Shown here piece after piece: positions 2,965 through 38,326 of a stretch of DNA of 64,000 nucleotides. The number at the start of each line of letters is the position of its first letter. The stretch's first letter is position 1. The stretch lies in assembly GCA_944391865.1 (NCBI GenBank), contig CALXVD010000005.1, positions 144-64,143 of the forward strand, written 5' to 3'. The notes beneath the pieces were generated by a model, which saw nothing but the letters and a program-made list of their open reading frames with translations, searched no databases and was not told the origin of the DNA. Source of the DNA: an uncultured Clostridia bacterium (GTDB taxonomy: Bacteria; Bacillota; Clostridia; TANB77; CAG-508). A program made the translations under genes and the position numbers.

Positions 2965-3076
2965 AAATTGTGATTTAGCGGTGAGATGTGTGAGGTGAGA
3001 GGTGAGATTTTAGGGATACGCTTCGCAGGCTCCGCCCTAATTTCACACTTCTCACATCCCACTTATCACTTCTCAT
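2965..3076 (-). repeat. Family-1 heptad-armed palindromic intergenic element, copy 1 (right terminal 12-mer missing)
   Basis: Reads gtgagatgtgtgaggtgagaggtgag...ttagggatacgcttcgcaggctccgccctaa...cacacttctcacatcccacttatcacttctca. It is homologous to the copies at 7792, 11586, 23918, 31084 and 38208. Confidence 0.8.
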
Positions 3077-3081
3077 ACAAA

Positions 3082-3108
3082 AAAGGAACAGAATAAAATC
3101 TGTTCCTT
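3082..3108 (-). terminator. Rho-independent terminator downstream of rpsR
   Basis: The minus strand reads GGAACAG-attttatt-CTGTTCC followed by TTTTTT. Confidence 0.7.
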
Positions 3109-3113
3109 AAACA

Positions 3114-3401
3114 TTAGTTTTGTGTGTATGGTAAAATAGCTATATGTCTTGCTCTTTTTATAGCTTGTGTAATATCTCTTTGATGTTTTGCGCAAGCACC
3201 TGTTGCTCTTCTTGGTAATATTTTACCTTTTTCATTTATAAATTTCTTTAATTGATCTGCATTTTTATAATCTAAAACAAAATCTTTATTGCTACACATT
3301 ACACATACTTTTTTTCTAGCTTTTCTGAATTTTGGATTGAAGTCATCATCGCTTCCGTTTCTTCTTCTATTGTTTTTTGAGTTTTGTTTTTTGTCTGCCA
3401 T
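3114..3401 (-). CDS. rpsR: 30S ribosomal protein S18
   Basis: Sequence includes KKVCVMC...[49 protein letters not shown], in rpsF-ssb-rpsR synteny. Confidence 0.95.
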
Positions 3402-3482
3402 TATATTTTCCCCCTTTCCAAAATTTGCTCTGCAAATTTTGTATTTTTAACTATCTACTTTAACTCTTTTTTGAAACAATTC

Positions 3483-3899
3483 TTAAAATGGTAATTCATC
3501 ATCTGAAGATGTAGTAAATTCTGAATTCTCTGATATTGTACTTCCAAATGTATTCTCAAAATTTGAAGTATCTCCTTCTCTTTTACTATCTGCAAAATAT
3601 GCTTCTTCTGCTACTACTTCTGTAACATAATGCTTTTGCCCTTTATCATCTTCCCAATTTCTTGTTTGAAGTCTTCCTATTACTCCAACTTGTTGTCCTT
3701 TTTTAAAATATTTGCTACAAAATTCTCCTGTTTTGCTCCAAGCAACAACATTTATAAAATCAGCTTGTCTTTCCTCACCTTGTCTTACAAATCTTCTATT
3801 TACTGCAAGTGAAAAAGATGCAACTAATGTATTATTAGTTTGAGTATATCTAACTTCTGGATCCCTTGTTAATCTGCCCATTAAAACAACTTTGTTCAT
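3483..3899 (-). CDS. ssb: Single-stranded DNA-binding protein
   Basis: MNKVVLMGRLTRDPEVRYT OB-fold N-terminus and an acidic C-terminal tail ending DDELPF. Confidence 0.95.
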   Translation of the reverse strand: MNKVVLMGRLTRDPEVRYTQTNNTLVASFSLAVNRRFVRQGEERQADFINVVAWSKTGEFCSKYFKKGQQVGVIGRLQTRNWEDDKGQKHYVTEVVAEEAYFADSKREGDTSNFENTFGSTISENSEFTTSSDDELPF

Positions 3900-3902
3900 A
3901 TT

Positions 3903-4746: not shown

Positions 4747-4800
4747 TTGTTTCCTCCATTAAAGGTATAAATTTATAATTTTATTTTTACATTTAATCAT

Positions 4801-7791: not shown

Positions 7792-7925
7792 AAATTGGAA
7801 TTTGTTTTTGTGATGTGTGAGGTGCGAAGTGCGAGGTGTGCTTTTTAGGGTTAGGCTACGTAAGGCTTACCTTAATTTCACACTTCCCACATCCCACTTC
7901 TCACTTCTCAGATAAATTACAATTT
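7792..7925 (-). repeat. Family-1 element, copy 2 (134 bp, core inverted relative to copies 3-6)
   Basis: aaattggaattt...gtgatgtgtgaggtgcgaagtgcgaggtgtgc...tacgta...cacttcccacatcccacttctcacttctc...aaattacaattt. The right 12-mer abuts the stop of ORF 7924-8175. Confidence 0.9.
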
Positions 7926-9044: not shown

Positions 9045-9047
9045 AGC

Positions 9048-9176: not shown

Positions 9177-11531
9177 TTATATCTCCCTATTCAGATTTCC
9201 ATTAGTGTAATTTTCTCCTTCTAATCTCTCTCCTTTTTTATGAATATTTATTATTTGTTGTATTTCTTCTTCAGTTTCATCTAAAATATCAATTCTTATA
9301 GAATCTACATTTAAATCTTTCCATGATATTGATGTTATCTTTGAATTATAAATTAAGTTATTACAATTTACCCTATCTGTATATATTGGAAATTCAAATC
9401 CCTTTCTATCTTTTAGTTTATACGTTCCTTTTTCGCAAATTCCAGGGCAATTATTTACTCTTCCAATTGTACAATATTCTGTTGTCATTAAAAGAGTTCG
9501 ACCATAAACTATAGCTTCTTTTTTAATATTTCTGTCTAAACTTTGAATACTTTCTTTATCTAGTTCTGGTGGTAAAGTAACCTTAGATACACCTAATTTT
9601 TCTAATTCTTGGGCGGTGTAGCTATTAGATACATTTAATGTATAATTTGCTATTAAATCTAATTTCTCAATTTCATATTTTTTTAGTAATTCTAAATGAG
9701 AAAGATTAGATAATACTATTCCTTTTACATTATTTCTTAATATCTCTTTTAAATTATTTTCTATCAAGATTTCATAATTACCCTTTGTAATTGCTGGAAG
9801 TAGTACATATGTATTAAACTTTTTACTAATTTTATTTATTTTTTCCTTATTTCTTAAAAATAATCTAAATGGAATATATATATTATCTACTCCTGTTAAA
9901 TTGCTATAATTTGTATTTTCATTAAAAGTATTTAATGCTAAAGAAACTTTAGGTTCTGATGTATTATTTTTAACAGTATTTTTTGGTTTGCATTCTATAC
10001 TTATGCTCTTTTTTCTTTTAAAACTTTTTAATATCTCATCTTGCAATTCTTCTATTGCATTTCTTCTTATACTATTTATTGCACTTATTGGAAGTATTAT
10101 ATTATCATCTGCTACTACTTGAATTTCCTCAATTTCAAAAGGAGTGTTTCCAGTTTTAGAAAGTTGCTCTTTTATTCTCTCTTTGCTTATTCCATTTTTT
10201 TCTGCCTTTTTTACAATTGTTTCTTCTGTTTTTATTAATCTCGTTTTACTCAAAATATCTTCTATTCCCAATTTTATAGGTTCATTTTCTTTTAAATAAA
10301 TTTTTACATTTATTGGTCTTTTTATATTTTCTTTGCTAGAAATTTCAATTATTTCTTTATTTAGTTTTTGAGATACTGTCCTATAAACTTTATTACCTCG
10401 CAAAATCTTTCCTTTTATTCTTCCTACTGTTACAACTTGTCCAATATTTGCAAATTTAATATTGTTATTACCATTCATAAGCTCAGAAATTTTGCATGAT
10501 GAATCATTAATTGAAATACTATCTCCTAAATTTAACTCTTTTGATAGCTTAATTTTTACATGGCCTTTACTTGGATTATAACTAATCACTTCTCCTGCTT
10601 GAACACCCATATGATTTGGTCTTTTAATATACATCATATCTTTTCCTAGTTTTCCCTTTAAATATCCAGTGCTAAATCCACCTCTATTAAAAATCTGCAT
10701 TAATTTTTCTCTATCATCTTCATCTACTATATATTTTTTTCCACTTTCAGCAAGGTCAATATATTTTCTATAAATACTAGTTACTATGCCTACATATTCT
10801 TTTGATTTCATTCTTCCTTCTATTTTGAATGATTTTACTCCGGCATTAATTAAATCCGGAATAATATCTAATGTACAAACATCTTTAGAGCTTAAAAGAT
10901 AGCCGTGTTCTTGAACTTTTCCGTTATTTATTAAACTGTATGGAAGCCTACAAGTTCCAGCGCACTTACCTCTATTTCCGCTTCTTCCGCCTATCATACT
11001 ACTCATTAAACATTGTCCAGAATAGCTTATACATAGTGCCCCATGGATAAATACTTCTATATCAATTTTAGTATTTTTACAAATATGCTCTATTTCTTCT
11101 ATTGATAACTCTCTTGCAAGAACACATCTTGAAAATCCTAAACTTTCTATTTCTCTTGCTCCATCTAAATTGTATATTGTCATTTGTGTGCTACTGTGGA
11201 CTTCTAAATCTGGGAAAAATTCTATTATTCTTTTAGCAAGCCCCAAATCTTGAACAATTACTGCATCTATTCCGGCATTATATGCAAATTCTACAAGCTC
11301 AATTGCATCTTCAAACTCATCGTTTTTTATTAATATGTTTATTGTTAAATGTGTTTTTACTCCTCTTAGCTTTGCATATTCTATTGCTTGCACTAATTCT
11401 TCTTTATTAAAATTTTCGGCATTTGCTCTTGCATTAAACTCTGATGCTCCAAAATACACAGCATCTGCTCCTGTTTGAACTGCTGTTTTTAAACATTCTA
11501 AATCTCCTGCTGGAGATAATAACTCTACCAT
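9177..11531 (-). CDS. Peptidase U32 family protein (collagenase-like)
   Basis: MVELLSPAGD start behind AAAGGAG, plus the U32 signature EVFIHGALCISYSGQC. The 55-aa N-terminal extension in the ORF track reads through repeat copy 3 and is discarded. Confidence 0.85.
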   Translation of the reverse strand: MVELLSPAGDLECLKTAVQTGADAVYFGASEFNARANAENFNKEELVQAIEYAKLRGVKTHLTINILIKNDEFEDAIELVEFAYNAGIDAVIVQDLGLAKRIIEFFPDLEVHSSTQMTIYNLDGAREIESLGFSRCVLARELSIEEIEHICKNTKIDIEVFIHGALCISYSGQCLMSSMIGGRSGNRGKCAGTCRLPYSLINNGKVQEHGYLLSSKDVCTLDIIPDLINAGVKSFKIEGRMKSKEYVGIVTSIYRKYIDLAESGKKYIVDEDDREKLMQIFNRGGFSTGYLKGKLGKDMMYIKRPNHMGVQAGEVISYNPSKGHVKIKLSKELNLGDSISINDSSCKISELMNGNNNIKFANIGQVVTVGRIKGKILRGNKVYRTVSQKLNKEIIEISSKENIKRPINVKIYLKENEPIKLGIEDILSKTRLIKTEETIVKKAEKNGISKERIKEQLSKTGNTPFEIEEIQVVADDNIILPISAINSIRRNAIEELQDEILKSFKRKKSISIECKPKNTVKNNTSEPKVSLALNTFNENTNYSNLTGVDNIYIPFRLFLRNKEKINKISKKFNTYVLLPAITKGNYEILIENNLKEILRNNVKGIVLSNLSHLELLKKYEIEKLDLIANYTLNVSNSYTAQELEKLGVSKVTLPPELDKESIQSLDRNIKKEAIVYGRTLLMTTEYCTIGRVNNCPGICEKGTYKLKDRKGFEFPIYTDRVNCNNLIYNSKITSISWKDLNVDSIRIDILDETEEEIQQIINIHKKGERLEGENYTNGNLNREI

Positions 11532-11585
11532 AATATTTGCTCCTTTGTTGGTATTATATAATATATTTTTGCTATTTACTATATC

Positions 11586-11719
11586 AAATTGTAATTTATC
11601 TGAGAAGTGAGAAGTGGGATGTGGGAAGTGTGAAATTGTGGTAAGACTTGCGTAGCCTTGCCATAAAAAGCACACCTCACACTTCGCACATCGCACTTCA
11701 CAAAAACAAATTACAATTT
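11586..11719 (+). repeat. Family-1 element, copy 3 (134 bp)
   Basis: aaattgtaattt...gagaagtgagaagtgggatgtgggaagtgtgaaa...cacacctcacacttcgcacatcgcac...aaattacaattt. Confidence 0.9.
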
Positions 11720-14802: not shown

Positions 14803-14944
14803 AAATTGTAATTTGTATGGTTAATTAATTGCAAATGTTGTAGGGGTCGCCGCCCACGGCGACCCGCATATCAATATTTAAGGGTCGCCCTGGGGTGCGA
14901 CCCCTACAGATTTAAAATTAATTTTCTCACATAAATTACCATTT
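14803..14944. repeat. Type-B GC-rich double-hairpin element bounded by the same 12-mers as family 1
   Basis: aaattgtaattt...tgtaGGGGTCGCCG-ccca-CGGCGACCCgc...GGGTCGCcctggggtGCGACCCctaca...aaattaccattt. The right 12-mer overlaps the stop of the 14943-16205 gene. Confidence 0.75.
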
Positions 14945-16205
14945 AGTTCATTCCTGCAGTGTAACCTGTAGACCACGCTATCTGTAAATTAAAACCTCCT
15001 GTTAAGCTATCTACATCTATTATTTCCCCTGCAAAATATAAACCTTTTACTATTTTTGATTCCATTGTTTTAGGGTTTATTTCTTTTATATTTATTCCAC
15101 CTGAAGTTATTATTGCTTCTTCTATTGGTCTTACACCATTTATATTAATCTCTAAACATTTAAGAACTTTTACTATTTTAGCTCTTTCGTCTTTTGTTAT
15201 TTCATTTACTTTTTTGTATGGATTAATGCCTGTTTTTTCTATTACAATAGGTATTAATTTTTGTGGGAGCAATTTATTTAAACTGTTTTTAAATTCTTTA
15301 TTTTTTTCATTTTCAAAATCTCTTAATATTCTTAAATCTAATTTTTCATCTGATAGTGCAGGCTTTAAATCAATTTCTAATTTAATGCTATTATTTTTAA
15401 ATAATTCTTCTATATTTTTATATCTAATTAAATACGCAGAAGCACTTAATATTATTGGTCCAGATACCCCAAAATGTGTAAATAGCATTTCTCCGAAATC
15501 TTGATATATAATTTTATCATTATTTTTTAATTTTATCGAAACGTTTTTAAGTGATAAACCTTGTAGTTTAGAACATATGCTATCTTTTGAGATTAGTGGC
15601 ACTAGTGATGGCTTTATTTTTGTAACTGTGTGACCTAATTCTTTTGCTATTTTATATCCATCTCCAGTAGAACCTGTTACTGGATAACTTTTTCCTCCTG
15701 TTGCTAAAATTATTTTATCAGCTTTTAATTCATTACTTATTTTGTTGCCGTGAGCACCTACATCATTTATTTTTACTCCTTCTGCTTTTCCATCTTTTAC
15801 AACTATTTTTTCTACTTTTGTATTTGTTAAAATTTTAACATTTAATTTTTTTAGAATTTTTAGTAATGCTTCTAGCACATCTATTGATTTATCTGATACA
15901 GGAAATATTCTTCCTCCTCTTTCTACCTTTGTTTTAACTCCTTCTTTTTCTAATAAATTAACAATGTCATTGTTATTAAAATTGTTTAAAGCTCCATATA
16001 AAAATTTTCCATTATTTGGTGTATTTTCAATAAAACCATTTAAGTCTGTACTGTTTGTTATGTTACATCTTCCTTTTCCTGTAATAAGTAGCTTCTTGCC
16101 ACAAGAACTCATCTTTTCTATTATTGTTACTTTGTTTCCACATTCTGCTGCTGATATTCCAGCAATTATTCCTGCCGGTCCGCCGCCTATTATAATAACA
16201 TTCAT
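14943..16205 (-). CDS. NAD(P)/FAD-dependent oxidoreductase, HI0933/YhiN (BaiN-like) family
   Basis: VIIIGGGPAGIIAG dinucleotide-binding N-terminus and the C-terminal GLYFAGEIIDVDSLTGGFNLQ motif. Confidence 0.8.
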   Translation of the reverse strand: MNVIIIGGGPAGIIAGISAAECGNKVTIIEKMSSCGKKLLITGKGRCNITNSTDLNGFIENTPNNGKFLYGALNNFNNNDIVNLLEKEGVKTKVERGGRIFPVSDKSIDVLEALLKILKKLNVKILTNTKVEKIVVKDGKAEGVKINDVGAHGNKISNELKADKIILATGGKSYPVTGSTGDGYKIAKELGHTVTKIKPSLVPLISKDSICSKLQGLSLKNVSIKLKNNDKIIYQDFGEMLFTHFGVSGPIILSASAYLIRYKNIEELFKNNSIKLEIDLKPALSDEKLDLRILRDFENEKNKEFKNSLNKLLPQKLIPIVIEKTGINPYKKVNEITKDERAKIVKVLKCLEININGVRPIEEAIITSGGINIKEINPKTMESKIVKGLYFAGEIIDVDSLTGGFNLQIAWSTGYTAGMN

Positions 16206-21010: not shown

Positions 21011-21012
21011 AT

Positions 21013-21785: not shown

Positions 21786-21817
21786 AACTGCTAACAAATT
21801 GTTAGCAGTTTTTTTAT
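21786..21817. terminator. Terminator hairpin downstream of 21823-22341
   Basis: ctgctaaca / tgttagcag stem with flanking A-run and T-run. Confidence 0.6.
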
Positions 21818-21822
21818 TTGTA

Positions 21823-22341: not shown

Positions 22342-22516
22342 ATATTTTTTTCCTTTCCATTAAAATTTGTTAATCATTACCAATTAATATTATAACACGT
22401 TTACATAAGTTTTGCAAGTTTTGTATATATCTCTATTTTGCTTATAGTTATTTATTGTTTTTTGATATTATTTGTGTTATACTTTTATTCGAAACAAATA
22501 ATAAGGGTGTAGTTTT

Positions 22517-23047: not shown

Positions 23048-23051
23048 AAAC

Positions 23052-23108
23052 AAAAAGGGACAGACCCCAATCGTTTCAAAATGAAACGATTGGGGTCTGT
23101 CCCTTTTT
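23052..23108. terminator. Perfect 27-bp-stem hairpin acting as a bidirectional terminator (REP-like)
   Basis: aaaaagggacagaccccaatcgtttca-aaa-tgaaacgattggggtctgtcccttttt lies between convergent genes. Confidence 0.7.
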
Positions 23109-23112
23109 ATTT

Positions 23113-23899: not shown

Positions 23900-23917
23900 G
23901 GCTTTCCTTTCTTAAAT

Positions 23918-24051
23918 AAATTGGAATTTGAATGTGAAGTGAGAAGTGGGATGTGGGAAGTGTGAAACTAGGGTAAGCCTTACGTAGCCTATCCCTAAAA
24001 AGCACACCTCACACTTCGCACCTCACACATCACAACAACAAATTACAATTT
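23918..24051 (+). repeat. Family-1 element, copy 4 (134 bp)
   Basis: aaattggaattt...gaagtgagaagtgggatgtgggaagtgtgaaa...tacgta...cacacctcacacttcgcacctcacac...aaattacaattt. The right 12-mer overlaps the mfd stop. Confidence 0.9.
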
Positions 24052-27000: not shown

Positions 27001-27454
27001 TTATATCATCTAAATTTATACTTGTATCCTGCTTTAATTCAAATATATTTTTATATAAAGTTTCTTTAGAAACTATTTCTTGAGATGCTGCTTCAATAGT
27101 AGTTACAATAACCTTTGCTTTTTTATTATAAATACTATTTAAGCATCTTATTCTATCTAAAGATATATCTTTACTTTCAGCAAGATAGTCATATGCCAAA
27201 ATCTCTCTTCTTGGAAAATATGCTACATCATCGCAAAAGTATTGTAAATCTTTTATAATTTTTCTTGCTTGAAGTTCATTATATGTAATTATGCATATAG
27301 GTTTTTCTGCGTAAAAGTATGTTGAATAAGCAAAGTGAACCTTTGCAACATCAGTAAGACCTGATAACATTATAGGGTTAGTACCAGATTTTACATTTTT
27401 TATATAATCATTAAATTTTTTAAAATTAGGCAATACCTTTACAATCTCACTCAT
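24050..27454 (-). CDS. mfd: Transcription-repair coupling factor Mfd. Four ORF pieces are joined by +1 shifts at CGG 26498-26500, 26014-26016 and 25554-25556.
   Basis: The junctions restore IEK-G-REVPEA, DLKI-G-DYVVHKTNGIG and Walker A GDVGY-G-KTEVAIRGAF. DEEH box and helicase C motifs lie downstream. Confidence 0.9.
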
Positions 27455-27465
27455 AAAATATCCTT

Positions 27466-28425
27466 CCTGATTTTGGGGACGGTTCCATTTTTCCTGTTAT
27501 TTAGGGACACCCCATATTATGATTTTAAAGTTTCCATTTTCCACTTAGAAATATTTAATTTTTTCATTATATCTACATATGTAATTTTATATCCTTGCTT
27601 TAAGTATTTTACTAGTTCTCTAGCTTCACTTTTATCGCATAATATTTCTTCTGTTTTTTTGTTTGAAACCTCTTCATACTCTCTAATTCTTGATTCTAAA
27701 ATTATTTCTTTGTTAATATCTATATCCATAAAAATATCTGTATTTTTGTCTTCTTCTAAAATTAAGTTATAATCGTTTTTGTCTAATATATCCTTCAAAC
27801 AATCTATTGAAATTTTATCTTTTTTATTAAAGTAATCATTATAGCTAGAATACTTATACTCTCCACTTTTGCTAACTATGTTTGCTTTTACTGGATTTAG
27901 GTGTATGTATTGTATACATTTAATTAAGTATCTTTTATCATAAATAGGCTCACTTAAATATCTATCTCTAAATACATATCCTACTCTATTATTTTCCATA
28001 AAATTATAATATTGTGCATATGACATATTTACAATGTGCATAAAACCTGACATCTCTTCTATTTTATCTGTAAAGATTAACATATGCGCATGGTTGTTCA
28101 TAATACAAAAAGCAACAATTTCAATTTTATATTTTTTTCTATAGATATTTAGTAATTCTAAATACCTTTTTATATAAATTTCCTTTTTAAAAATATGTTC
28201 TTTTTTTATTCCTTGAATCATTACATGAAAAAATGATGTATTTAATGATTTTCTTGCTATGCGAGGCATATAATCATCTCTCTTTCCTTTTTTTATTATG
28301 TGCCCCCATATGTATAAATCTTATACATCCTTTTCATTTTAACATATTTTTCTAATTCTTTCAACCTGAAAATTGGGGACGGTTCCAAAAATCCAGGCTT
28401 TTTGGAACCGTCCCCAATTTTCAGG
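27466..28425 (-). mobile_element. IS200-like / REP-associated tyrosine transposase unit with flanking GGGGACGGTTCC repeats
   Basis: CCTGAnnnTTGGGGACGGTTCC occurs at 27466-27486 and 28365-28386, with an inverted copy at 28404-28425. The last two form a perfect 27-bp hairpin. Confidence 0.65.
27517..28269 (-). CDS. Y1 (HUH) transposase, IS200-like/RAYT family, with a C-terminal HTH-like tail
   Basis: The N-terminal core includes NNHAHMLI (HUH motif) and YIHLNPVKANIV (catalytic Tyr region). Confidence 0.75.
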   Translation of the reverse strand: MPRIARKSLNTSFFHVMIQGIKKEHIFKKEIYIKRYLELLNIYRKKYKIEIVAFCIMNNHAHMLIFTDKIEEMSGFMHIVNMSYAQYYNFMENNRVGYVFRDRYLSEPIYDKRYLIKCIQYIHLNPVKANIVSKSGEYKYSSYNDYFNKKDKISIDCLKDILDKNDYNLILEEDKNTDIFMDIDINKEIILESRIREYEEVSNKKTEEILCDKSEARELVKYLKQGYKITYVDIMKKLNISKWKMETLKS

Positions 28426-29290
28426 TTTCTTTAAATCCTTCTCCAAATACTTCTCTTGCGTTTGATATTATTATAAATGCGTTAGGATCCATGTCACTTA
28501 TTATTTGCATTATTTCTCTTACTTCTCCCCTTGATACTACACACATAAGAATATTCTTTTCTTCTCCTTTATACATTCCTGTTCCTTTCAAGGAAGTACT
28601 TCCTCTTCTTACTGTTATGCTAATTTCTTTTGCTATTTCTTTATATTTAGGTGATATTACAAGTATCATTTTTGCAAAATCGATACCTTCAAAAAATATG
28701 TCAAGCATTTTTCCCATTATATATATAGCAATTGCTGAATATAAACCAATTTCTAGCTCTTTAAAAAATACTACGTTCAAAGCTACAATAATTGTATCTA
28801 ATAAAGCAAGTAAGTTACTTATTCTAACATTTGGTTTAAATGCTTTTATTATTTGTGTTAGAAGGTCTGTGCCACCAGTAGATGCATTTGCTTTTAGTAC
28901 AATAGCTGTACCTATTCCAGCTATTATTCCTCCATATATACACCCCAAAACTCTATCTGTTGTAAGAGGCTCAAATTTATCAAAGAAGTTTAGAAAAAAA
29001 GATAAGGATATTGTTCCTAGCAGTGCATTTAAGAAGAATTTTTTCCCATTTTTTATTGCTGATATTATAAATAAAGGAATGTTTAAAGCAAAAACGGTAG
29101 TACCTAGTGGTATTTCAAACAAATAATATGTAATTGTTGCAATTCCTGAAAATCCACCAGCTGACAATTGGTTTGGAAGTAAAAGTAAGCTGGTTGCAAT
29201 AGCAATAAAAGCAGTTCCAATTATAATTTGTACTGCTTGCTTAATAAGATGTTTAATTTTAACTATTTCTCTTATAGTTTTAAATTTCAT
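28421..29290 (-). CDS. YitT-family membrane protein (DUF2179 C-terminal domain)
   Basis: Multi-pass N-terminal region followed by the C-terminal GTGMYKGEEKNILMCVVSRGEVREI pattern. Confidence 0.75.
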   Translation of the reverse strand: MKFKTIREIVKIKHLIKQAVQIIIGTAFIAIATSLLLLPNQLSAGGFSGIATITYYLFEIPLGTTVFALNIPLFIISAIKNGKKFFLNALLGTISLSFFLNFFDKFEPLTTDRVLGCIYGGIIAGIGTAIVLKANASTGGTDLLTQIIKAFKPNVRISNLLALLDTIIVALNVVFFKELEIGLYSAIAIYIMGKMLDIFFEGIDFAKMILVISPKYKEIAKEISITVRRGSTSLKGTGMYKGEEKNILMCVVSRGEVREIMQIISDMDPNAFIIISNAREVFGEGFKET

Positions 29291-29331
29291 ATAAAAACAC
29301 CCATATATATTATGGATGTTTTTGGTAATAA

Positions 29332-30385
29332 CTATTCATCTAAAAAATCTTTATATGTTTTTAAAATATTTATTTCAAATTTACCGGGTCTAATTGTTTT
29401 TACTTGTTTTATTTTTACGTCTAAATCATATAATTCTTTTAACTTTTTAATATTTTCTTTTTTGTGTCCAACTACATTGTTTACATTTTCTGGATTTGTT
29501 TTTATTTCTATTTCTTTTACTTTTACATTAAATTTTTTTATTTTTTCTACTATGCTATCATACCATATGCTATCTTCTACTAGCTGTCCAAAGGCTTCGT
29601 GATATGGTCCGAGCAACTACTTCACTCTTTTCATTTTCTGGACTACATATTAAATCTGTGCTTTGAAGTCCCATTCTAATTACTGTTATTTTTTTATGGG
29701 TAAAATAATAATAAATTTCTTTGCATCTTTCTACCGCTTGAAGCACAGTAAGTGGTTCATACTCTCCGTTTTTATATTCTTTTTCTAGTTCTGTATTTTT
29801 TATTACTAAAACTGGGTAAAGCCTTACTATTTTTGGCTTAAGTTTTGCCAAATCTCTTGCTGTGTTTAATTCATCTAATTTAGTACTTTCTGGAAGTCCT
29901 ATCATCATTTGATGACCTAAATCAAAACCATATCTTCTAATTAACTTAGAAGCCTTCTTAACATCTTGGAACGTATGACCTCTTTTACACTTTTTTAATA
30001 TATAATCATTAGTAGATTGTACGCCTAATTCTATTGTTTTTACTCCATATTTTTTTAATAATTTTAATTTTTCTACATCTATATAGTCTGGTCTTGTTGA
30101 TACTCTTATAGAATTTACTTTTTTATTTTTTACATACTCGTATGCCACTTGCAATAGTTCTTCTTGTTTTTCTTTTTCTATACCTGTAAAACTTCCTCCA
30201 AAAAAAGCAATTTCTCTATATGTATTTTCTTTAAAAATTTTTAAATATTCTTCTATAGTATTTTTTACATCTTCTTTTGTAACTCTTTTAGTTTGTCCAC
30301 TTATGCTCTTTTGGTTACAAAATGTGCAATCGTTTGGGCAACCTAAGTGTGGTACAAATATTGGAATTATATATTGATGTTTCAT
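29332..30385 (-). CDS. Radical SAM protein (ELP3-like family). Pieces are joined by a +1 shift at CGG 29609-29611.
   Basis: CPNDCTFC is the CxxxCxxC cluster motif. The junction gtt gct CGG Acc ata joins SEVVA-G-PYHEAFGQLVEDS. Confidence 0.75.
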
Positions 30386-31063
30386 TACTTCCTCCTTTTT
30401 TCTAATGCTATTCTTGCTGCTTCCATTTCTGCTGCTTTTTTGGTTTTTCCTTCCCCCTTAGCCAAAACTTCTCCATCACATTTTACTTCTACAATAAATG
30501 TTTTGTCATGGTCTGGTCCTTTTGTATCTAATAAGATGTATTCTATTTTTACATTTCCTTTTACTTGCAATTTTTCTTGAAGCACTGTTTTATAATCTTT
30601 CATTCCCACGTGTTTACTTGCAATTTCTATTGGCTCACTTAAATTATCTATTATAAATTTTTTTGCTTCTTCTAAATTTGAATCTTTGTATATTGCTGCA
30701 ATAACAGCTTCTACGCTATCAGCTAAAATTGCGGGTTTTTTATTTCCGTTTGCATCTTATTTCGCTTTTCCCTAAATATAGAAAATCACTAAAATTATGC
30801 TTAATTGCAACTTTATATAGACTATCTTCACAAACAACTGTTGCTCTAACTTTAGTCATTTCCCCTTCTTTTAATTTTTGATAATTTTTATATAGATAAT
30901 CGCTAACTACAAATTCTAATATACTGTCTCCTAAGAATTCCAACTTCTCATTGCTCTCTACTTTATGGTCATGCGCATAAGAAGTATGCGTTAGTGCTGT
31001 TTTTAATAGATTTATATCATTAAATTTATGTCCTATATCTTCTTCAAATTTTTCTATATTCAT
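30385..31063 (-). CDS. rnc: Ribonuclease III. Pieces are joined by a +1 shift at CGG 30746-30748.
   Basis: NEKLEFLGDSILE catalytic signature. The junction tgc aaa CGG Aaa taa restores GKSEIRCK-G-NKKPAILADSVEAVIAAIY, followed by the dsRBD. The N-terminal ORF extension through repeat copy 5 is discarded. Confidence 0.85.
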
Positions 31064-31083
31064 TCCTTCATCTCCTTTTATAT

Positions 31084-31217
31084 AAATTGGAATTTGAATG
31101 GGAAGTGAGAAGTGGGATGTGGGAAGTGTGAAATTAGGGTAAGCCTTACGTAGCCTAGCCATAAAAAGCACACCTCACACTTCACACCTCTCACCTCACA
31201 AAAATAAATTACAATTT
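31084..31217 (+). repeat. Family-1 element, copy 5 (134 bp)
   Basis: Same architecture as the other copies. The right 12-mer aaattacaattt encodes the last two codons and the stop of murG (K L *). Confidence 0.9.
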
Positions 31218-32327
31218 GATTAATTCTTTTATTTCCTCATAAATTTTATCTTCCACGTTATCAATTGAAACTTTTTGAGCTTTTTGTCCCATTTTAATCA
31301 ATTTGTTTTTGTCTTTTAACATACTTTCTAATTCTTTTGTTAAAGTACTTTCATTTAAATCTTTATCTAATATAATTTTAGCAGCTCCAACATTTTCTAA
31401 TACCTTTGCGTTATATTCTTGATGATTTTCTGTTGCAAATGGAAATGGTATAAAAATTGCAGGCTTTCCTGTTTTTGCAACTTCTGTTATTGTCATTGCT
31501 CCACTTCTTGATATTATTATATCAGCTAAATTCATCATCTCTTCCATATTGTATATGTATGGCATAATTTTAACATTTTCTATTTTATTAATATTAATAT
31601 TTTTTTCTTCCAATTGTTCTTTTATTATGTCATATTGTTTTGGTCCTGCTGCCCATATAATTTGATAATTTTTGTTAGATTTGTTTTCTATAATACTAGT
31701 TAGTGTAGTATTAATTGATTTAGCTCCTTGACTTCCCCCAAAAACTAATACTATAGGTAAATCACTATTTAATCCAAGAGAGCTAATTATTTTATTTTTT
31801 TGACTTTCTGATAAATTTACCTTTTTAATTTTAGTTGGTGTACCTGTTACTACAATTTTTTTTGCTTTTGGCAATCTTTTTATTGCATCTGAAAATCCTA
31901 CTAATACTGTGTTTACTTTATTTGATAGTAGCTTTGTTGCAACACCGGGGAATGCATTACTTTCATGTAAAATTGTTGGAATTTTATATTTTGTTGCAGC
32001 AAGTATTGTTGGCCCACAAATAAATCCACCTGTTCCTATTACTATATCAGGCTTGAATTGTTTTACAATTTTTTTTGCTTCGCTAAAACCTTTTATTGTT
32101 TTAATCATATTCTTAATGTTATCTATACTTATTTTTCTATTTATACCATATGCATCAATTGTTTTTAATTCGTATCCTGCTCTTGGAACTAAATCATTTT
32201 CTAGCCCTCTTGTTGTACCAATAAACATTATTTCTGCTCTAGGATTTTCTTTTTTTATTTTATTTGCAATCGCTATTCCTGGGTTAATATGTCCTCCAGT
32301 TTGTGCTGCTGCAATTATAACTTTCAT
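31209..32327 (-). CDS. murG: UDP-N-acetylglucosamine--N-acetylmuramyl-(pentapeptide) pyrophosphoryl-undecaprenol GlcNAc transferase
   Basis: AAQTGGHINPGIAIA N-terminus, GGSQGA motif and dcw synteny. Confidence 0.9.
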   Translation of the reverse strand: MKVIIAAAQTGGHINPGIAIANKIKKENPRAEIMFIGTTRGLENDLVPRAGYELKTIDAYGINRKISIDNIKNMIKTIKGFSEAKKIVKQFKPDIVIGTGGFICGPTILAATKYKIPTILHESNAFPGVATKLLSNKVNTVLVGFSDAIKRLPKAKKIVVTGTPTKIKKVNLSESQKNKIISSLGLNSDLPIVLVFGGSQGAKSINTTLTSIIENKSNKNYQIIWAAGPKQYDIIKEQLEEKNININKIENVKIMPYIYNMEEMMNLADIIISRSGAMTITEVAKTGKPAIFIPFPFATENHQEYNAKVLENVGAAKIILDKDLNESTLTKELESMLKDKNKLIKMGQKAQKVSIDNVEDKIYEEIKELIKL

Positions 32328-32358
32328 TTTTAATTTCCCTCCGTGGATTATAATTATT

Positions 32359-33508
32359 TTATATCTTTTGGCTTTGTCTTGATATATTCAGCAATACCCC
32401 CACTGCACAAAGCAAAATAATTAGCGATGTTCCTCCATAGCTAAAGAAAGGTAGTGCCATTCCTGTTACTGGCATTGATGATGTAACTACTGCAATGTTT
32501 ATAATTGCTTGTAATCCTATTAATGCTGTAATTCCTGTTGCAAGCAAACTTCCGAACATATCAGGTGCTTTCATAGCAATTAAAATTCCTCTCCAAATAA
32601 ATACAGCAAACAGTAATATTACCGCAAGACATCCAATAAAACCTAGCTCTTCTGCAAGAACTGCAAATATAAAGTCATTATGTGGTTCTGATATGTATAA
32701 ATATTTTTGTTTACTGTTTCCAAGTCCTACACCAAAAAGTCCTCCTGAACCAATTGCATATAAGCTTTGTATTATTTGCCAGCCTGAGTCTTGTGCATCT
32801 GCCCATGGATTTAAAAATGATGTTATTCTTTCTAATCTATATGAACCTATATTAAAGAATTTTGCAAGTATATACATTGCACCAATTCCTAAACTTGCTC
32901 CTACAGCTCCAAAAGAAACAAAATGTACTAATCTACTTCCTGCAACAAGCATCATTACAGCAACAACTGCAATAATAATTACAGAAGCACTAAAGTGAGA
33001 TTGTACACCAAGTAAAATTAAAATAACTGGTGACAAAATTAAAAATGGCTTTAGGAAACCCTTCCATACATTTCTTAAATCATCTTTATGTTTTGTAAGA
33101 TAGTAAGCAAAAAATACTATAACTCCTATCTTTGTGAGCTCAGATGGTTGGAATGATGAAACAATAGGTAAATTAATCCATCTTCTTGCTCCATTTACAC
33201 TTCTTCCGAAGTCCTGGCACTAAAACTAGTAATAGTGCACCAATTGATATAATATAAGCTATCTTATAAAATTTGCTGTATATTCTATAATCTATTTTTG
33301 ATAATATAAGCATTGCTACAATTCCTATTACAGCACTTATTAGTTGTTTAATAACATATGTATAACTGCTTCCAGTAGTTGCAAGTGACGATGGTGAACT
33401 TGCCGACAATACCATAGTTATACCTAAAGCTAGCAAAAGCATTACGGTTATAAATAATATAAAGTCAAATGACTTATTTGTTTCTACTTTCTTAGTGTTT
33501 TTTACCAT
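32359..33508 (-). CDS. ftsW: FtsW/SpoVE (SEDS family) peptidoglycan polymerase. A +1 shift occurs at CGG 33206-33208.
   Basis: The junction gga ctt CGG Aag aag restores LVPGL-G-RSVNGARRWINLPIVSSFQPSELTK. The C-terminal part carries the SEDS motifs. Confidence 0.85.
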
Positions 33509-33535
33509 AAACCTCTAACCTCTAATTTATAATCT

Positions 33536-34517
33536 CTAAATAGCAAACAATGCTATAACACATAACAATAGTGTTATAACACAGAAAACTGATACTACTT
33601 TATTTTCTTTCCACCCTGATAATTCAAAGTGATGATGTAGTGGTGCCATTTTTAAAAGTCTTTTTCCTCCTGTTTTTTTAAAATATGCCACCTGTAATAC
33701 TACAGATAAAGTTTCTAGTACTGGTATTAAGGCTATAATTAATAATATTAATGGCATTTTTAAATATAATGCTATTGCTGATATTATTCCTCCGAAGAAG
33801 TAGTGAGCCTGTATCACCCATAAAAACTTTTGCTGTGTTTAAATTAAATATTAAAAATCCTAAACAAGCACCAACTATTATGCTTCCAAATATAATAACT
33901 TCTTTTACATCTAATATTATTGCTATAACTGTAAGACAAGTAGTAATAATTGCTGAAATACTTGTACTTAATCCATCTATACCATCAGTTAAATTAATTG
34001 CATTTGTTGTTCCTAGCATTACAAATATAACAAATGGTATATATAAAATCATTGGTAGGGTAATATAATTTTTTGCAAAAGGTATGAATGTTTCTGTTCC
34101 CAAATGTATACCCTTTGTTAAATATAATGTATATGCAACAGATATTATAAGTAACCCTAACATTTTATATGCTGGTTTTAAACCTGTTGTATCTTTAAGT
34201 ACTAATTTTTTAAAGTCATCTATAAATCCTATTATTCCAAATCCAATAGTTATAAATAGTAATGGAAGAATATTTTTTGCTACTTCTGGTTCTCTTGGTG
34301 CATAATAAATATACCCTCCAATAGTTCCTATAATAATTCCTATTGCAATTATTATTCCTCCCATTGTTGGTGTTCCTTGTTTTTTAAAATGAGACTCTGG
34401 TCCGTCATCTCTTTCTATTTGACCAACTTTTAATCTTCTTAATATGGGTATTACAAATATTGAAATAATTACTGTCGCTATGAAAGATACAAATAATATC
34501 TTCGTTTGGAAATACAA
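33536..34517 (-). CDS. mraY: Phospho-N-acetylmuramoyl-pentapeptide transferase. A +1 shift occurs at CGG 33792-33794.
   Basis: [12 protein letters not shown] motif. The junction ctt ctt CGG Agg aat restores [19 protein letters not shown]...APLHHHFE. The start is TTG behind AAGGAGG. Confidence 0.9.
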
Positions 34518-34631
34518 GTCCGGTTCCTCCTTAAAAATTCGTGTGTATAGGCATATATTCAGCCCATCTACATATATACATAGTGTTTTTTATACAGGTC
34601 GCTCTTGGCAAAGCGCCCCATACGTGTATTA

Positions 34632-36095
34632 TTATTTTATTATCTTTTTTATTATCTCTCTTTCATCAAATGGATATTTTTTCCCATTTATTTCTTGATA
34701 AGTTTCATGTCCTTTTCCTGCAAGAACTATTATATCATTTTTATTTGCCATATCAATTGCGTATTTTATTGCTTCTATCCTGTCTGTTATTGTTATATAT
34801 TTTCCTTTATTTTTTTTAGTTCCTTCTTCTATTTGTTTAACTATTTTTTCAGGATCTTCTGTTCTAGGATTGTCTGATGTAATTATTGTAAAGTCAGCAA
34901 TATTTCCTGATATTTCTCCCATTTGAGGTCTTTTGCCTGGGTCTCTATCTCCTCCGCATCCAAATACAGATATTACTCTTCCCCTTGTATAACTTTTTAC
35001 TGCCAATAATATGTTTTGAAGGCTTTCTGGTGAATGTGCATAATCAATCATAATTGTAAGTTCTTTCTTATTGGGAATGAGTTCGCTTCTTCCAGGCACC
35101 CTTACATCTATAAGTGCTTCTTTAATTTCCTCTGCTGTAACACCAAATTTTGTTGCAACACTTATTGCTGCTAATGAATTATATACACTAAATCTTCCTG
35201 GTATTCCTGTTTTTACTCTTTCATTTCTTGTTCCTATTTTTACTTTAAAATCCACGCTTGAATTTGTAACGGTAATATCTTTTGCAAGTAAATCGCAAGC
35301 ATTATCTATGCCATATGTTTTTATCTCGCAAGGTAAATTCATTTTCTTTATTTTTGCTACATGAAAATCATCTGCATTTATAAATCCTATTCTGCACATT
35401 TCAAAAAGTTTTAGTTTAGAATTAAAATAATCTTCCATATTTGGATGTTCTTTTTCGCTTATATGGTCTTCTGAAAAATTTGTAAATACTCCTATATTAA
35501 AATCACACCCATACACTCTTTTTAACTTTAAACTTTGTGATGAAACTTCCATAATAACTGTATCTACCTTTTCTTCTACCATTTTGCTAAATAATTCTTG
35601 CAATTCCAAGCTTTCTGGAGTTGTTCTATCACTATCTCCTAAATTTTTGTTTCCAATATAATTTGCAATTGTTCCAATTAGTCCTACTTTTTGCCCATGT
35701 TTTTCTAATATTGATTTAAGCATAAAAGTTGTAGTTGTTTTTCCTTTAGTTCCTGTTATTCCTATTAAGTTAAATTTAGAAGATGGGTTGTTATAAAAAT
35801 TACATGCAATTTTAGCAAGTGCGAGTCTTGTATCTGGAGCAACTATAATTGTTATATCGTCTTTTATATCGTCTTTTTTTAATACAGATATATCTTCAAT
35901 TACAATTGCTATTGCACCTTTTTTAATTGCTTCTTTTATGTATTTATGTCCGTCTGTTTCATATCCTCTTATTGCAACAAACAACGAATTATTTATTACT
36001 TTTCTTGAATCGTGAGAAATACTTTCAATATCTAATTCTAAATCTCCTTTTGCCTTCAACCCTTCTATTCCATTTAATACCACTTTTAATTTCAT
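34632..36095 (-). CDS. murE: UDP-N-acetylmuramoyl-L-alanyl-D-glutamate--2,6-diaminopimelate ligase
   Basis: HDSRKV, GITGTKGKTTT and DYAHSP motifs. The frame is intact. Confidence 0.9.
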   Translation of the reverse strand: MKLKVVLNGIEGLKAKGDLELDIESISHDSRKVINNSLFVAIRGYETDGHKYIKEAIKKGAIAIVIEDISVLKKDDIKDDITIIVAPDTRLALAKIACNFYNNPSSKFNLIGITGTKGKTTTTFMLKSILEKHGQKVGLIGTIANYIGNKNLGDSDRTTPESLELQELFSKMVEEKVDTVIMEVSSQSLKLKRVYGCDFNIGVFTNFSEDHISEKEHPNMEDYFNSKLKLFEMCRIGFINADDFHVAKIKKMNLPCEIKTYGIDNACDLLAKDITVTNSSVDFKVKIGTRNERVKTGIPGRFSVYNSLAAISVATKFGVTAEEIKEALIDVRVPGRSELIPNKKELTIMIDYAHSPESLQNILLAVKSYTRGRVISVFGCGGDRDPGKRPQMGEISGNIADFTIITSDNPRTEDPEKIVKQIEEGTKKNKGKYITITDRIEAIKYAIDMANKNDIIVLAGKGHETYQEINGKKYPFDEREIIKKIIK

Positions 36096-36196
36096 AGTTA
36101 ACCTCCGATTCTAAATTTTAATTAACCTTATTTATTATATAATTAAATTCTTATTTTGTATAGTAAAATTCGTTATTTTTTGATATATAATATTTT

Positions 36197-38193
36197 TTAT
36201 TGAGCATAAATTACTACTTTTGTTCCAGAATTTACTTGTATACCCTTTTTAGGAAGCTGATCTGTAACAATTACGCTATCATCTACCTTATTTTCTTCTG
36301 TTTCTCCGTTTACTTCAACATCTAATCCTAATTCTTTTAAAGCATTTTTTGCGTCTTTAATACTTAAACCTGTTACTTCTGGCATATCTACTACTTCTTT
36401 TATATCTTCTGCATTTTCTTGTTTAGAAATTTCTAAATATGGAAGAACTTCTCCGCAATACTTGAGATGCTATTGGAGAAGCTATTCCTCCTCCTTGGTG
36501 TCCTCCTTCTCCAGTTGGGTTATATAATATAATCATTATAACAACTTCTGGGTCAGATATATCTGCAACTCCAACAAATGATGCTACATACTTTCCTGTA
36601 TTTACGCCGTCTTCTGATGTACCTGTTTTTCCTCCTATCGAATATCCTTTTACTTGAGCTCCTTTTCCTGTACCTTCTGCCACAACTGATTCCATCATAC
36701 TAAGTACTTTTTTTGCCGTTTCTTCTGAAATTACTTGTTCTCCTTCTTTTACTTCTATATCTTTTCTTTCACCAGTTTTGCTATCAATAGTAGCTTTTAA
36801 AATTCTTGGAGTGAATTTCTTACCATTGTTTGCAATAGTTGAAACAACCGAAAGCATCTGAATTGGTGTTATTTCAAATCTTTGCCCAAACGATATTGTT
36901 GCAAGCTCAACTGGTCCTACTTTATCTTCTTTTAAAAATATACTTCCCGCTTCTCCTGGCAAATCTATTCCAGTTTTTGATAGCAAGCCAAATTTTTCTA
37001 AGTAATCATAATACTTTTCGACACCTAACTTTTGCCCGGAGTCCTATAAAAACTGGGTTGCAAGAATTCATTAATGCTTGCCTTAAACTTTGAGCGCCAT
37101 GTGGTCTATAATATCTCCAACATTTTATTCTTGTTCCTGCAATATTTATAGACCCTGTGCAAGAAAATTCTCCACTATTATCTGTATCTGTAATTCCTTC
37201 TTCTAATGCAACTGACGCCGTAACAAGTTTAAAAACAGAACCTGGTTCGTAAGTATCCGAAATTGCTTTATTTCTCCACATTTGTTGCAAAGCAGTATTT
37301 TTTTCTTCGGAAGATAATGAATCCCAAACTGATTTTAAATCTTCGTTATTAATCTCATAAGGATTATTTAAATCATAATTTGGATAACTTGCTATCGCCA
37401 AAATATCTCCTGTTTTAGGATTTGCAATTAAAATGTTGCCACCATCTGTGCACTCATTATCAATGCAAGCTTGAGTCAAGTATTTTTCTGCAATTGATTG
37501 TATTGTCATATCTATTGATAGAACTAAACTATCTCCATCAACAGCTTCAATATAATCCTCTCCTTCAGTTCCCAGGTCCGTTCCTGTTGCATCTGTTATT
37601 TTTAAAATTTTTCCTGTTTCACCTTTTAAAATATCATCATATACACTTTCTATTCCATCTAATCCTTGATTATCGCTCCCTGTAAATCCAATTACATTTG
37701 ATGCAAGTGTAGAATATGGATAATATCTTTTAGAATCTTCATCTATATTAATTCCTGTGGTTATATTATTCTCCTCCATCCAAATCCTTAACTTATCTGT
37801 TTCCTCTTTATCTACTTTTTTTACTATAGTTTCAATAGAGCTATTTTTACTAACTTTTTTCAATACTGTTTCATAATCTAAATCAAATATATCTGTTAAT
37901 GCTCTTGCTACTTTTTCTTTATCTTCTTTCTTTATATTGCCCGGATTTACAGATACAGTTTCTACACTAGCACTTACTGCTAAAACATTTTTTCCCGTAC
38001 TATCATAAATGGTTCCTCTTTTAGGATTTATTTTTCTATTTAATGTTTGCTGAGTATATGCCATAGCTTGCAATTCAGAGCCCTGCACAAATTGAATAAA
38101 ACCAATTCTAACAATAAGCAAAAAGCAAATTATAAAGCTTACAAATAGCATATTTCTCAATTTTCTTTTTCTTTTAATATTTGTAGGTTTCAT
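36197..38193 (-). CDS. Class B penicillin-binding protein (SpoVD/FtsI-like) with a C-terminal PASTA domain. +1 shifts occur at CGG 37036-37038 and 36453-36455.
   Basis: SVFK active-site motif. The junctions restore SCNPVFIGL-G-QKLGVEKYYDYL and ASPIASQVL-G-EVLPYLEISKQ, followed by PASTA (MPEVTGLSIKDAKNALKELGL). Confidence 0.85.
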
Positions 38194-38207
38194 AAAACAC
38201 CTCTGTA

Positions 38208-38326
38208 AAATTGGAATTTATCTGGGAAGTGAGAAGTGGGATGTGGGAAGTGGGAAACTAGGGTAAGCCTAACAAAGCCTAGCCCTAAAAAGCACACCTC
38301 ACACTTCGCACCTCACACCGCACAAA
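38208..38326 (+). repeat. Family-1 element, copy 6 (right 12-mer missing)
   Basis: aaattggaattt...ggaagtgagaagtgggatgtgggaagtgggaaa...cacacctcacacttcgcacctcacaccgcac, lying between ftsL and the PBP gene. Confidence 0.85.

Follow-up and report, generated by a model that had tools for sequence, protein, structure and literature searches.

A palindromic repeat with tandem-heptad arms dispersed among intergenic spacers of gut Clostridia

Introduction

What kind of element places the same palindrome of some 134 nt, its arms built from tandem heptads, into six gene spacers of one bacterial contig? The question is raised by a 64,000-nt stretch of contig CALXVD010000005.1 (assembly GCA_944391865.1) from an uncultured Clostridia bacterium, here called the window. 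The bacterium's own species is missing from the species-representative genome set, in which the closest MurG is ~80% identical to that of the window; the window sequence is also present in several ENA and Logan gut assemblies. The initial annotation left the repeat unassigned and likened it to miniature transposable elements with inverted repeats (MITEs), repetitive extragenic palindromic (REP) sequences and Correia-type elements. As detailed below, the repeat belongs to a real, dispersed, recently mobile and non-coding family that is apparently unnamed. With modest rather than firm confidence, it is best explained as a non-autonomous, modular palindromic repeat resembling REP doublets (REPINs), MITEs or bacterial interspersed mosaic elements (BIMEs), which has proliferated between the genes of a narrow clade of AT-rich, uncultured gut Clostridia (~28% GC).

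Anatomy of the element and its copies in the window

The element is framed by a terminal inverted repeat (TIR) of 12 nt and comprises two arms, with four or five GTGNGAN heptads each, and a GC-rich centre. The TIR reads AAATTG(G/T)AATTT or AAATT(A/C)CAATTT and extends weakly to 14 nt. One GTAG lies in the centre and, among the GTGNGAN arm variants, GTGG alone fits the GTRG tag of REP sequences. All six copies initially reported were recovered at or within a few bases of their given positions, four of them complete at 134 nt (Table 1); the coordinates of copies 2–5 stand, whereas the ends of copies 1 and 6 were corrected slightly. The proposed architecture of 12-mer termini, heptad arms and centre holds, as illustrated by copy 4, and the high GC content is borne out (39–47% in the copies versus 28% in the window). 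In an alignment of the six, copies 3–6 share one orientation and copies 1 and 2 the opposite one; copy 1 is the most diverged and has no TIR next to its L arm. A 17-mer that spans two heptads, searched with up to three mismatches, matches 19 times, always within the six copies (0.07 matches are expected from shuffled sequence), and has no match in the window beyond 38.3 kb. Polymorphism look-ups for copies 2 and 4 returned one allele in all samples.

The copies are positioned between genes whose initially given names are backed by Pfam. Their description as entirely intergenic is accurate as to position, but the murG stop codon (31209–31211) lies within a TIR of copy 5, and the stops of mfd and of the ATP-synt_F-like gene overlap the ends of copies 4 and 2. 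The false N-terminal extensions attributed to open reading frames (ORFs) that run through copies are real for U32 (ORF 9177–11696) and rnc (ORF 30740–31171). A seventh element with the same TIR and another interior was overlooked initially (14803–14946); its DNA folds at −36 kcal/mol (z −7.1).

Copy number, host range and recent copying

Exact matches to a 19-mer of the arm, the counts of which are a lower bound, occur in at least 77 stretches, mostly from four or five metagenome-assembled genomes (MAGs) of gut Clostridia; most of the matches fall in BRZ_DA__bin48, E25__bin59, SRR11489788_bin.70, LOHA05_bin.009 and MAGs from Hadza and goat. With nhmmer, a profile built on four copies from the window returned 92 non-overlapping copies from 58 sources. 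Seven of the copies in BRZ_DA__bin48 have the same sequence throughout their 134 nt, another two deviate by one base, and all of them lie between unrelated flanks. Identical 134-mers at unrelated sites point to recent copying. Within 21 kb around murG, copies are present in 2 of 80 related species and absent from the other 78, a patchy occurrence that marks a lineage-specific family and no ancient conserved regulatory RNA.

Rfam yielded no match at the gathering score and, at a permissive E-value, generic miRNA-hairpin matches alone, far below threshold. No description of the element was found in the literature by sequence or by concept, and full-text matches to heptad sequences were discarded as primers. 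The element was not found in phage and plasmid collections or in viral contigs, where one match proved to be a chance 19-mer in GC-rich DNA. The sole plasmid-collection match to the C-rich arm, a (CCTCACA)11 microsatellite between a hypothetical gene and insertion sequence (IS) remnants of Escherichia coli pO157 (L172, AB011549.2 54350–54420), is unrelated to the family. The initial annotation had named two outcomes that would speak against it, a match to a named family and confinement to the window. Without such a match, and with the element genome-wide in related MAGs, neither was found.

Insertion sites

No target-site duplication of any length was found around 34 full copies, including the seven identical recent ones, and the flanks of these copies show a weak preference for AT immediately before and after the element. 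Duplication models of 2–10 bp and of AATT are unsupported by the flanks of recent identical copies, and a TA duplication of the mariner/IS630-like or Correia/NEMIS kind fails in eight of nine recent copies. Because neither a target-site duplication nor a parent IS was found, the element is not a classical MITE or Correia-type repeat; what survives of the initial comparison is a small, dispersed, mobile-like hairpin repeat.

Co-directional gene pairs flank the copies in 21 of the 30 close contexts. The stop codon of the upstream gene often falls within a TIR or abuts it, and the next start follows 15–20 nt past the other end, without any orientation bias relative to the genes (13 versus 8). Comparison of orthologous regions, as initially proposed, uncovered empty sites and present/absent alleles. 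Downstream of rpsR, strains that share an identical S18 protein and have nearly the same flanks fall into two groups, one with the heptad element and one with just a 27-nt TIR mini-hairpin (GAATTGTAATT-ATAC-AAATTCCAATTT), and five short-read contigs stop 77 nt after rpsR, within the repeat. The site between ftsL and the penicillin-binding protein (PBP) gene is empty in two of the fetched loci (L082, L084) and holds a different palindromic insert in each of the window, L081, L085 and L087.

A scan of positions 20001–40000 detected no intrinsic terminator (GC-rich stem with U-tract) at copies 4–6, and terminator or promoter function was rejected as no consensus signal is present at the copies. 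Resemblances to Spo0A, DnaA and Rex/CRP boxes, Chi sites and anti-Shine-Dalgarno mimicry were dropped as partial.

Folding and constraint on the heptads

Folding in both orientations gave a single long hairpin for each window copy, well beyond shuffled sequences, with RNA energies of −36 to −58 kcal/mol and z-scores of −3.7 to −8.9. One RNA strand is more stable by 7–22 kcal/mol in three of the four complete copies, and the strands are equal in copy 3. In copy 4, the RNA strands fold at −58 versus −45 kcal/mol and the DNA strands equally, at −26 kcal/mol; the RNA asymmetry is due to G-U pairs.

Heptad composition was determined from the arm that had not been used to ascertain loci; as the copies share descent, these counts and the pairing counts below are descriptive and not statistical tests. 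Positions 1, 2, 3, 5 and 6 are fixed at 84–99% (G 86%, T 99%, G 97%, G 98% and A 84%, respectively), and positions 4 (T 62%, A 20%, C 12%, G 7%) and 7 (G 44%, T 31%, A 25%, C ~0%) are free. Arms mostly comprise four or five heptads (range 2–7), and close copies differ by whole heptads of 7 nt. RNAalifold recovered 15 consensus arm pairs from 40 diverse copies, all of them invariant and none with compensatory base changes, which makes covariation uninformative as a test of RNA structure. When heptads that face each other are compared, Watson-Crick pairing is seen at position 4 in 30% of cases (24% expected by chance) and at position 7 in just 8% (26% expected). G-U pairing at position 7 reaches 49% on one strand, as against 0.4% on the other.

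Constraint thus looks to act on the motif in each arm. A long hairpin does form, as initially claimed, but the pairing of the arms looks like a by-product of their shared GTG-N-GA-N motif, since two convergent arrays of one motif produce a helix with a mismatch every 3–4 bases. Each window arm holds two GGG tracts, short of the four or more G3 tracts of a potential G-quadruplex, which is therefore not the conserved feature.

Shared termini and mosaic interiors

The repeats are mosaic, with a shared terminus and exchangeable cargo. The 12-mer termini are common to several interior types in the same genomes, and across loci the pair AAATTGTAATTTG...CAAATTACAATTT encloses several kinds of interior, often concatenated: the GTGNGAN element, a REPIN framed by heptad arms of the TTAGANN kind, GTNAANA-type heptads, GGGACTGTCCC doublets and a mini-hairpin of 31 nt. 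GGGGAC-hairpin cargo is likewise bounded by this TIR, and TIR-only hairpins of 22–31 nt occur as well. The clearest series lies between murG and rnc, where close relatives end murG with AAATTGTAA followed by TTT, which is the TIR, and differ in what it encloses. The interior consists of nothing in L082, a GGGGACAGACCCC hairpin in L085, an AT-rich palindrome in L081 and L084, GTAG-tagged REP doublets in L086, L089, L091 and L093, and a diverged heptad element in L087. The TIR is also found in relatives at trmH-mfd and rpsR-tkt, with a different or nearly absent interior, and heptad arms flank bona fide GTAG REPs in L087, L033, L067 and L086. Two readings of this mosaic are open, namely transposition of whole units followed by decay or replacement of the interior, and exchange of cargo among resident TIR hairpins.

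Two further observations concern these interiors. GTAG-tagged, REPIN-like REP doublets (e.g., GTAGGGGTCGCCGCCCACGGCGACCC ... GGGTCGCCCTGGGGTGCGACCCCTAC) are found in the window at 14840–14905 and in L040, L086, L089, L091, L093, L033, L046 and L067. A perfect 47-nt palindrome at 23057–23103 (GGGACAGACCCCAATCGTTTC...GAAACGATTGGGGTCTGTCCC), with T-runs on both sides and located between convergent genes, looks like a bidirectional terminator built from a GGGGWSAS-type repeat; this type of repeat is also cargo within the TIR hairpins of relatives.

A candidate mobilizing enzyme

The only Y1/HUH transposase gene of the window encodes a protein similar to RAYT (REP-associated tyrosine transposase) and TIRYT enzymes. 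It matches Pfam Y1_Tnp (6e-10) and the NCBIfam REP-associated tyrosine transposase model NF047646 (1e-18; 67.5 bits, below the cut-off of 80), and nearly all of the best 120 clusters listed among its 1325 homologues sit on one or few contigs. The inverted repeats flanking the gene (TTGGGGACGGTTCC) are found nowhere else in 79 loci. Its flanks (27473–27486 and 28366–28421) comprise a perfect hairpin upstream (AAAATTGGGGACGGTTCC...GGAACCGTCCCCAATTTT) and one half-site downstream, and the hairpins belonging to the gene itself are GGGGACGG. These repeats resemble the GGGGWSAS TIRs of TIRtrons (PMC3733652), and Y1 homologues in other MAGs have analogous GGGGACG flanks. The gene is missing at the syntenic position in close relatives; Y1 genes were found in two element-bearing genomes, that of the window and BRZ_DA__bin48. 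A RAYT as cognate enzyme was set aside on account of the different flanking repeats, the lack of synteny in relatives and the lack of a co-occurrence signal within 12 kb of the Y1 homologues in 14 other genomes, and any link between the Y1 gene and the heptad element is tentative. Scans for distant TIR pairs and solo half-elements recovered composite non-coding mosaics only, and within the fetched DNA of the loci scanned no long TIR pair encloses a transposase ORF.

The motif itself bears some likeness to REP tags. GTGGGAN corresponds to the GTRG tag plus the additional bases "GW," and also to the head of Pseudomonas fluorescens REP group I (GTGGGAG...; PMC3733652, PMC3116915). However, position 4 of the heptad is free (GTGA, GTGT and GTGC are common), whereas REP tags keep a G there.

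Heptad hairpins beyond the Clostridia

The initial annotation considered heptad periodicity in both arms to be unusual, a view that is contradicted by a precedent in Xanthomonas (PMC4692102) and by convergent GTGGGAA hairpins in many phyla. The arm 19-mer also matches heptad arrays or hairpins in unrelated, often GC-rich taxa, and wherever a complementary array lies nearby, it is 3' of the G-rich array (59 cases) and never 5' (0 cases). A scan for the convergent arrangement GTGGGAAGTGGGA-N(8-38)-TCCCACTTCCCAC found 29 hairpins, several per genome. GTGGGAA hairpins occur in Planctomycetota (Thermoguttaceae, Tepidisphaeraceae, Phycisphaeraceae, Pirellulales, Botrimarina) and in Gemmatimonadales, Gallionella, Ferrigenium, Deinococcus, Thermaceae, Lewinellaceae, Verrucomicrobia and Butyrivibrio; the groups with a multicopy GTGGGAA unit are Planctomycetota, Gemmatimonadota, Deinococcota, Betaproteobacteria, Bacteroidota, Verrucomicrobiota and Bacillota. 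None of these cross-phylum hairpins matched Rfam.

Heptamer arrays have been described before. Xanthomonas genomes contain ~186 (GGGANTN)n arrays each, most of them with four units, and 70–75 pairs are "always" convergent and hence potential stem-loops; their function is undescribed and no association with mobile elements was found (PMC4692102). Further heptamers are the GGGGA(C/T)T simple sequence repeat (SSR) of Nostoc (PMC4692102), the cyanobacterial short tandemly repeated repetitive (STRR) sequences and the TAACTGA repeats of Beggiatoaceae (PMC4679880). It is conceivable, if quite doubtful, that the heptad-armed hairpins of different phyla form one class, produced or recognized by machinery with a 7-nt register. 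In one version, Y1/HUH enzymes would deposit or use the arrays as iterated tags of the GTRG type; in another, the arrays would have been added as extensions to 3' ends where the REP-like hairpin of the centre is broken. Such a class is supported by the G-rich heptads, which run 5' to 3' toward the central palindrome on both strands and never in reverse, and by the Clostridia arms, which frame REP or REPIN centres. The window element would then be a mobile, TIR-packaged member.

Two side observations concern the wider set. In L026 (333–433, a Bacillota MAG) and L196 (2–60, a Gemmatimonadales MAG), the GTGGGAA hairpin adjoins sequence that by eye resembles a tRNA gene. Nor is the mixing of heptad types restricted to Clostridia, since GTGGGAN arrays adjoin arrays of GTACGTA/GTGCGTA or of TTTGACC in L071, L073 and L076, which come from other phyla.

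Discussion

In the explanation favored here, an outer TIR of 12–14 nt, common to other repeat types, would bound two convergent heptad arrays and a GC-rich, REP-like centre. The arrays would lengthen and shorten in 7-nt steps in the manner of microsatellites, and whole 134-nt units would be copied to new sites without target-site duplication, typically landing in the short gap that separates a stop codon from the next ribosome-binding site (RBS). A copy in this position would be co-transcribed and fold as a long hairpin. Mobilization would probably take place in trans via a single-stranded hairpin, handled by a putative HUH/Y1-type (RAYT/TIRYT-like) or similar duplication-free enzyme. The element itself would be essentially selfish, and its periodic mismatches may make a long palindrome tolerable to the host.

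Several points weigh against this account. No transposase is tied to the element in the window or the fetched loci, and a search of the window and of ~190 loci found no autonomous element bounded by these termini. The Y1 gene of the window fails the REPtron test, being flanked by TTGGGGACGGTTCC repeats and not by the heptad element, and 14 genomes with Y1 homologues (at most 51% identity) have no heptad element within the 12-kb flanks. At the murG and rpsR sites, the TIR of relatives with another interior fits cargo replacement equally well. Furthermore, five heptad positions are almost invariant between diverged subfamilies and in unrelated phyla, which suggests a sequence-specific reader or generator that an account based on selfish slippage does not name. 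The evidence also comes from MAGs, in which copies were partly ascertained via the L arm and kinship makes the counts non-independent.

An alternative would be a cis-acting RNA hairpin selected by the host, the stem of which modulates mRNA processing, stability, translational coupling or access of Rho in operons. The precise placement of copies between stop codon and RBS within operons and the very stable RNA folds would suit such a role, as would the strand asymmetry specific to RNA, with G-U pairs at position 7 confined almost entirely to one strand and the DNA strands of copy 4 equal. In addition, the G-rich arm is always 5', so that a C-rich stretch is never exposed before its partner exists. 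A regulatory hairpin would nevertheless be expected to show what the copies do not: they have no orientation bias with respect to transcription, no compensatory substitutions and no terminator or promoter consensus, identical copies lie beside unrelated genes, and the same operons lack a copy in 78 of the 80 related species, which speaks against a conserved regulatory need. A regulatory origin is hence unlikely, though not negligible. The second reading of the mosaic is quite unlikely: TIR mini-hairpins would be the older residents, and heptad, REPIN and GGGGAC modules would have spread among them by template switching or short-homology recombination. The relatives with differing or nearly absent interiors at murG-rnc, trmH-mfd and rpsR-tkt are in line with this, as are the TIR-only hairpins, and the missing target-site duplication would be expected. 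However, 12–20 nt of AT-rich homology is short for recombination, the TIR-only hairpins differ in their loops and are explained equally well by central deletions of full elements, and element-free species have no pool of empty TIRs, the 12-mer occurring about as often as expected by chance in most of the 80 murG loci.

The heptad motif gives rise to a further and improbable proposal, in which a reader with a 7-nt register recognizes the heptads as iterated binding or cleavage tags and the arrays, not the hairpin, are functional. Fixation of five of seven positions in both arms without covariation, the fit of GTGGGAN to the GTRG tag plus "GW" of GTAG-superfamily REPs and to the P. fluorescens group I head (PMC3733652, PMC3116915), a tag orientation as in the predominant REP dimers (tag outside) and the heptad arms around bona fide GTAG REPs all agree with such a reader. 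It is at odds with the free position 4, where the GTAG of REPs has a conserved G, and the other heptads within the same TIR frame (TTAGANN, GTNAANA) would need other readers; moreover, no cognate protein was found, the Y1 gene lacks heptad flanks and co-occurrence is unsupported. Finally, a classical MITE derived from an IS with a DDE transposase and moved through its TIRs would account for 12–14-nt TIRs in a small, multicopy, intergenic element, and a DDE IS is present in the window (Table 1). This explanation is already largely refuted and retains hardly any probability, as recent identical copies lack target-site duplications, no TIR-like 12-mer lies near the DDE IS of the window, and an IS with these ends (AAATTGTAATTT) occurs in no locus scanned.

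BIMEs of E. coli and BOX elements of Streptococcus pneumoniae are mosaic, intergenic, co-transcribed and hairpin-forming repeats, the boxB unit of the latter measuring 45 nt. Like them, the non-autonomous repeat favored here is modular, assembled from few motifs and variable in internal unit number (boxB there, heptads here), but the sequences are unrelated, the unit is 7 nt instead of 45 nt, and the heptad modules are nested symmetrically in a shared TIR. Correia/NEMIS, ERIC, RUP and Nezha MITEs likewise measure 100–150 bp, possess TIRs, lie next to genes and are co-transcribed into stable RNA hairpins. They differ in their target-site duplications (TA for Correia) and identifiable parent IS, neither of which was found for the heptad element, and Correia/NEMIS has a TIR of 26 bp as opposed to 12–14 nt.

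The closest parallels are REP/REPIN sequences with their RAYTs and the TIRtrons (PMC3116915, PMC3733652). Both they and the heptad element are extragenic imperfect palindromes of ~100–130 nt that form one long hairpin, reach tens to hundreds of copies and are patchy among relatives, with no target-site duplication reported or seen. Both are also convergent with the tag outside and are accompanied by a single-copy Y1/HUH gene in the genome, and GTGGGAN resembles the GTRG tag plus GW. In contrast, a REPIN has one REP stem-loop per side where the heptad element has tandem heptads, the latter has outer AT-rich TIRs, and the Y1 gene is here flanked by GGGGACG-type, TIRYT-like repeats and not by the heptad element. 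The survey of REPs tagged with GTAG or CGTC does not mention Firmicutes among the carrier phyla or elsewhere (PMC3733652). The heptamer SSR pairs of Xanthomonas and Nostoc (PMC4692102) resemble the arms in being intergenic tandem heptamers with fixed and free positions, mostly ~4 units and variable unit number, and the Xanthomonas pairs are, as here, always convergent. They were described as SSR or G-quadruplex motifs unlinked to mobile elements, whereas the present arrays lie in a TIR-bounded unit that is copied whole; no earlier description of heptamer arrays packaged in this way was found.

The family adds a well-defined, currently active palindromic repeat to the Firmicutes, exhibits nested mosaics with a common terminus and swappable cargo, and joins two unconnected literatures, on excess intergenic heptamer repeats and on mobile REP/REPIN-type palindromes. 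In practice, its copies break short-read assemblies (five contigs end in one copy) and cause false N-terminal extensions and false stop positions in MAG gene calls. Should a specific enzyme lie behind the 7-nt register, the family would supply dozens of natural substrates, differing in length by steps of 7 nt, for its identification. The question with real upside is what imposes this register and the strictly convergent, G-arm-first topology across phyla.

Other features of the window

Table 1. Repeat copies, parts of the reference copy and other annotated features of the window (positions within the 64,000-nt stretch; bits are scores of the four-copy profile unless stated).
Feature	Position	Strand	Description	Context
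Copy 1	2965..3081	-	Diverged; TIR AAATTGTGATTT only at 2965-2976; 77 bits	Between rpsR terminator hairpin and transketolase gene
Copy 2	7792..7925	-	Complete, 134 nt; 150 bits	Between ATP-synt_F-like gene and DUF1256 gene
Copy 3	11586..11719	+	Complete, 134 nt; 149 bits	Between divergent U32 peptidase and acyl-ACP thioesterase genes
Copy 4	23918..24051	+	Complete, 134 nt; reference copy; 151 bits	Between mfd stop and trmH-like RBS/start
Copy 4, TIR	23918-23929		AAATTGGAATTT	
Copy 4, G/T-rich arm	23932-23966		Five heptads, ATGTGAA GTGAGAA GTGGGAT GTGGGAA GTGTGAA	
Copy 4, centre	23967-24002		TAGGG...ACGTAG...CCCTA	
Copy 4, C/A-rich arm	24003-24035			
Copy 4, second TIR	24040-24051		AAATTACAATTT	
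Copy 5	31084..31217	+	Complete, 134 nt; 150 bits	Between murG and rnc; rnc RBS after the TIR opposite the murG stop
Copy 6	38208..38327	+	R-arm-side TIR absent; 122 bits	Between ftsL/DivIC-like gene and PBP gene
Seventh TIR-bounded element	14803..14946	+	Ends AAATTGTAATTT...AAATTACCATTT; interior a GTAG-tagged REP doublet (REPIN), no heptad arms	
Y1/HUH transposase gene (RAYT/TIRYT-like)	27517-28269	-	250 aa; single in window; HAH and YIHLNP motifs	
DGR RT-14 RNA	49069-49227		Rfam, 82 bits	Diversity-generating retroelement (DGR)
DGR template repeat	49252-49345			DGR
DGR reverse transcriptase	49360-50373			DGR
DGR variable repeat	50906-50999			3' end of FGE-sulfatase-fold gene
Serine recombinase	46208-46915			
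DDE transposase IS	52025-53335		Two partial copies, 98-100% identical: 44018-44803, 53535-54459	
GH94 gene fragment, duplicated	45754-46254 / 54548-55321			

A diversity-generating retroelement occupies 49069–51772, and of the 17 differences between its repeats, 13 affect T residues of the + strand, corresponding to A on the coding strand. The stretch 43980–55320 is rich in mobile elements, and a very large ORF (55257–62729, minus strand; 2490 aa) lies beside it. In the ORF 40803–42221 (minus strand), at least ten tandem 15-nt units (GTTTGTCCTGGTTCT) at 41398–41622 encode an E-P-G-Q-T-like pentapeptide repeat on the coding strand; the 472-aa protein has no Pfam match. A number of housekeeping genes are broken up into successive ORFs that lie in different frames (24050–27454; 23113–23899; 30385–31081; 36423–38193; 2060–2891), among them mfd in four pieces and a trmH-like gene in two, as well as rnc, the PBP gene and the N-terminal part of transketolase. 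The same splits recur in the independent assemblies checked (L078 and L161 for mfd, trmH and transketolase, and related strains as well for transketolase) and therefore represent real frameshifts or pseudogenes, or a habit of the lineage, and not random error.

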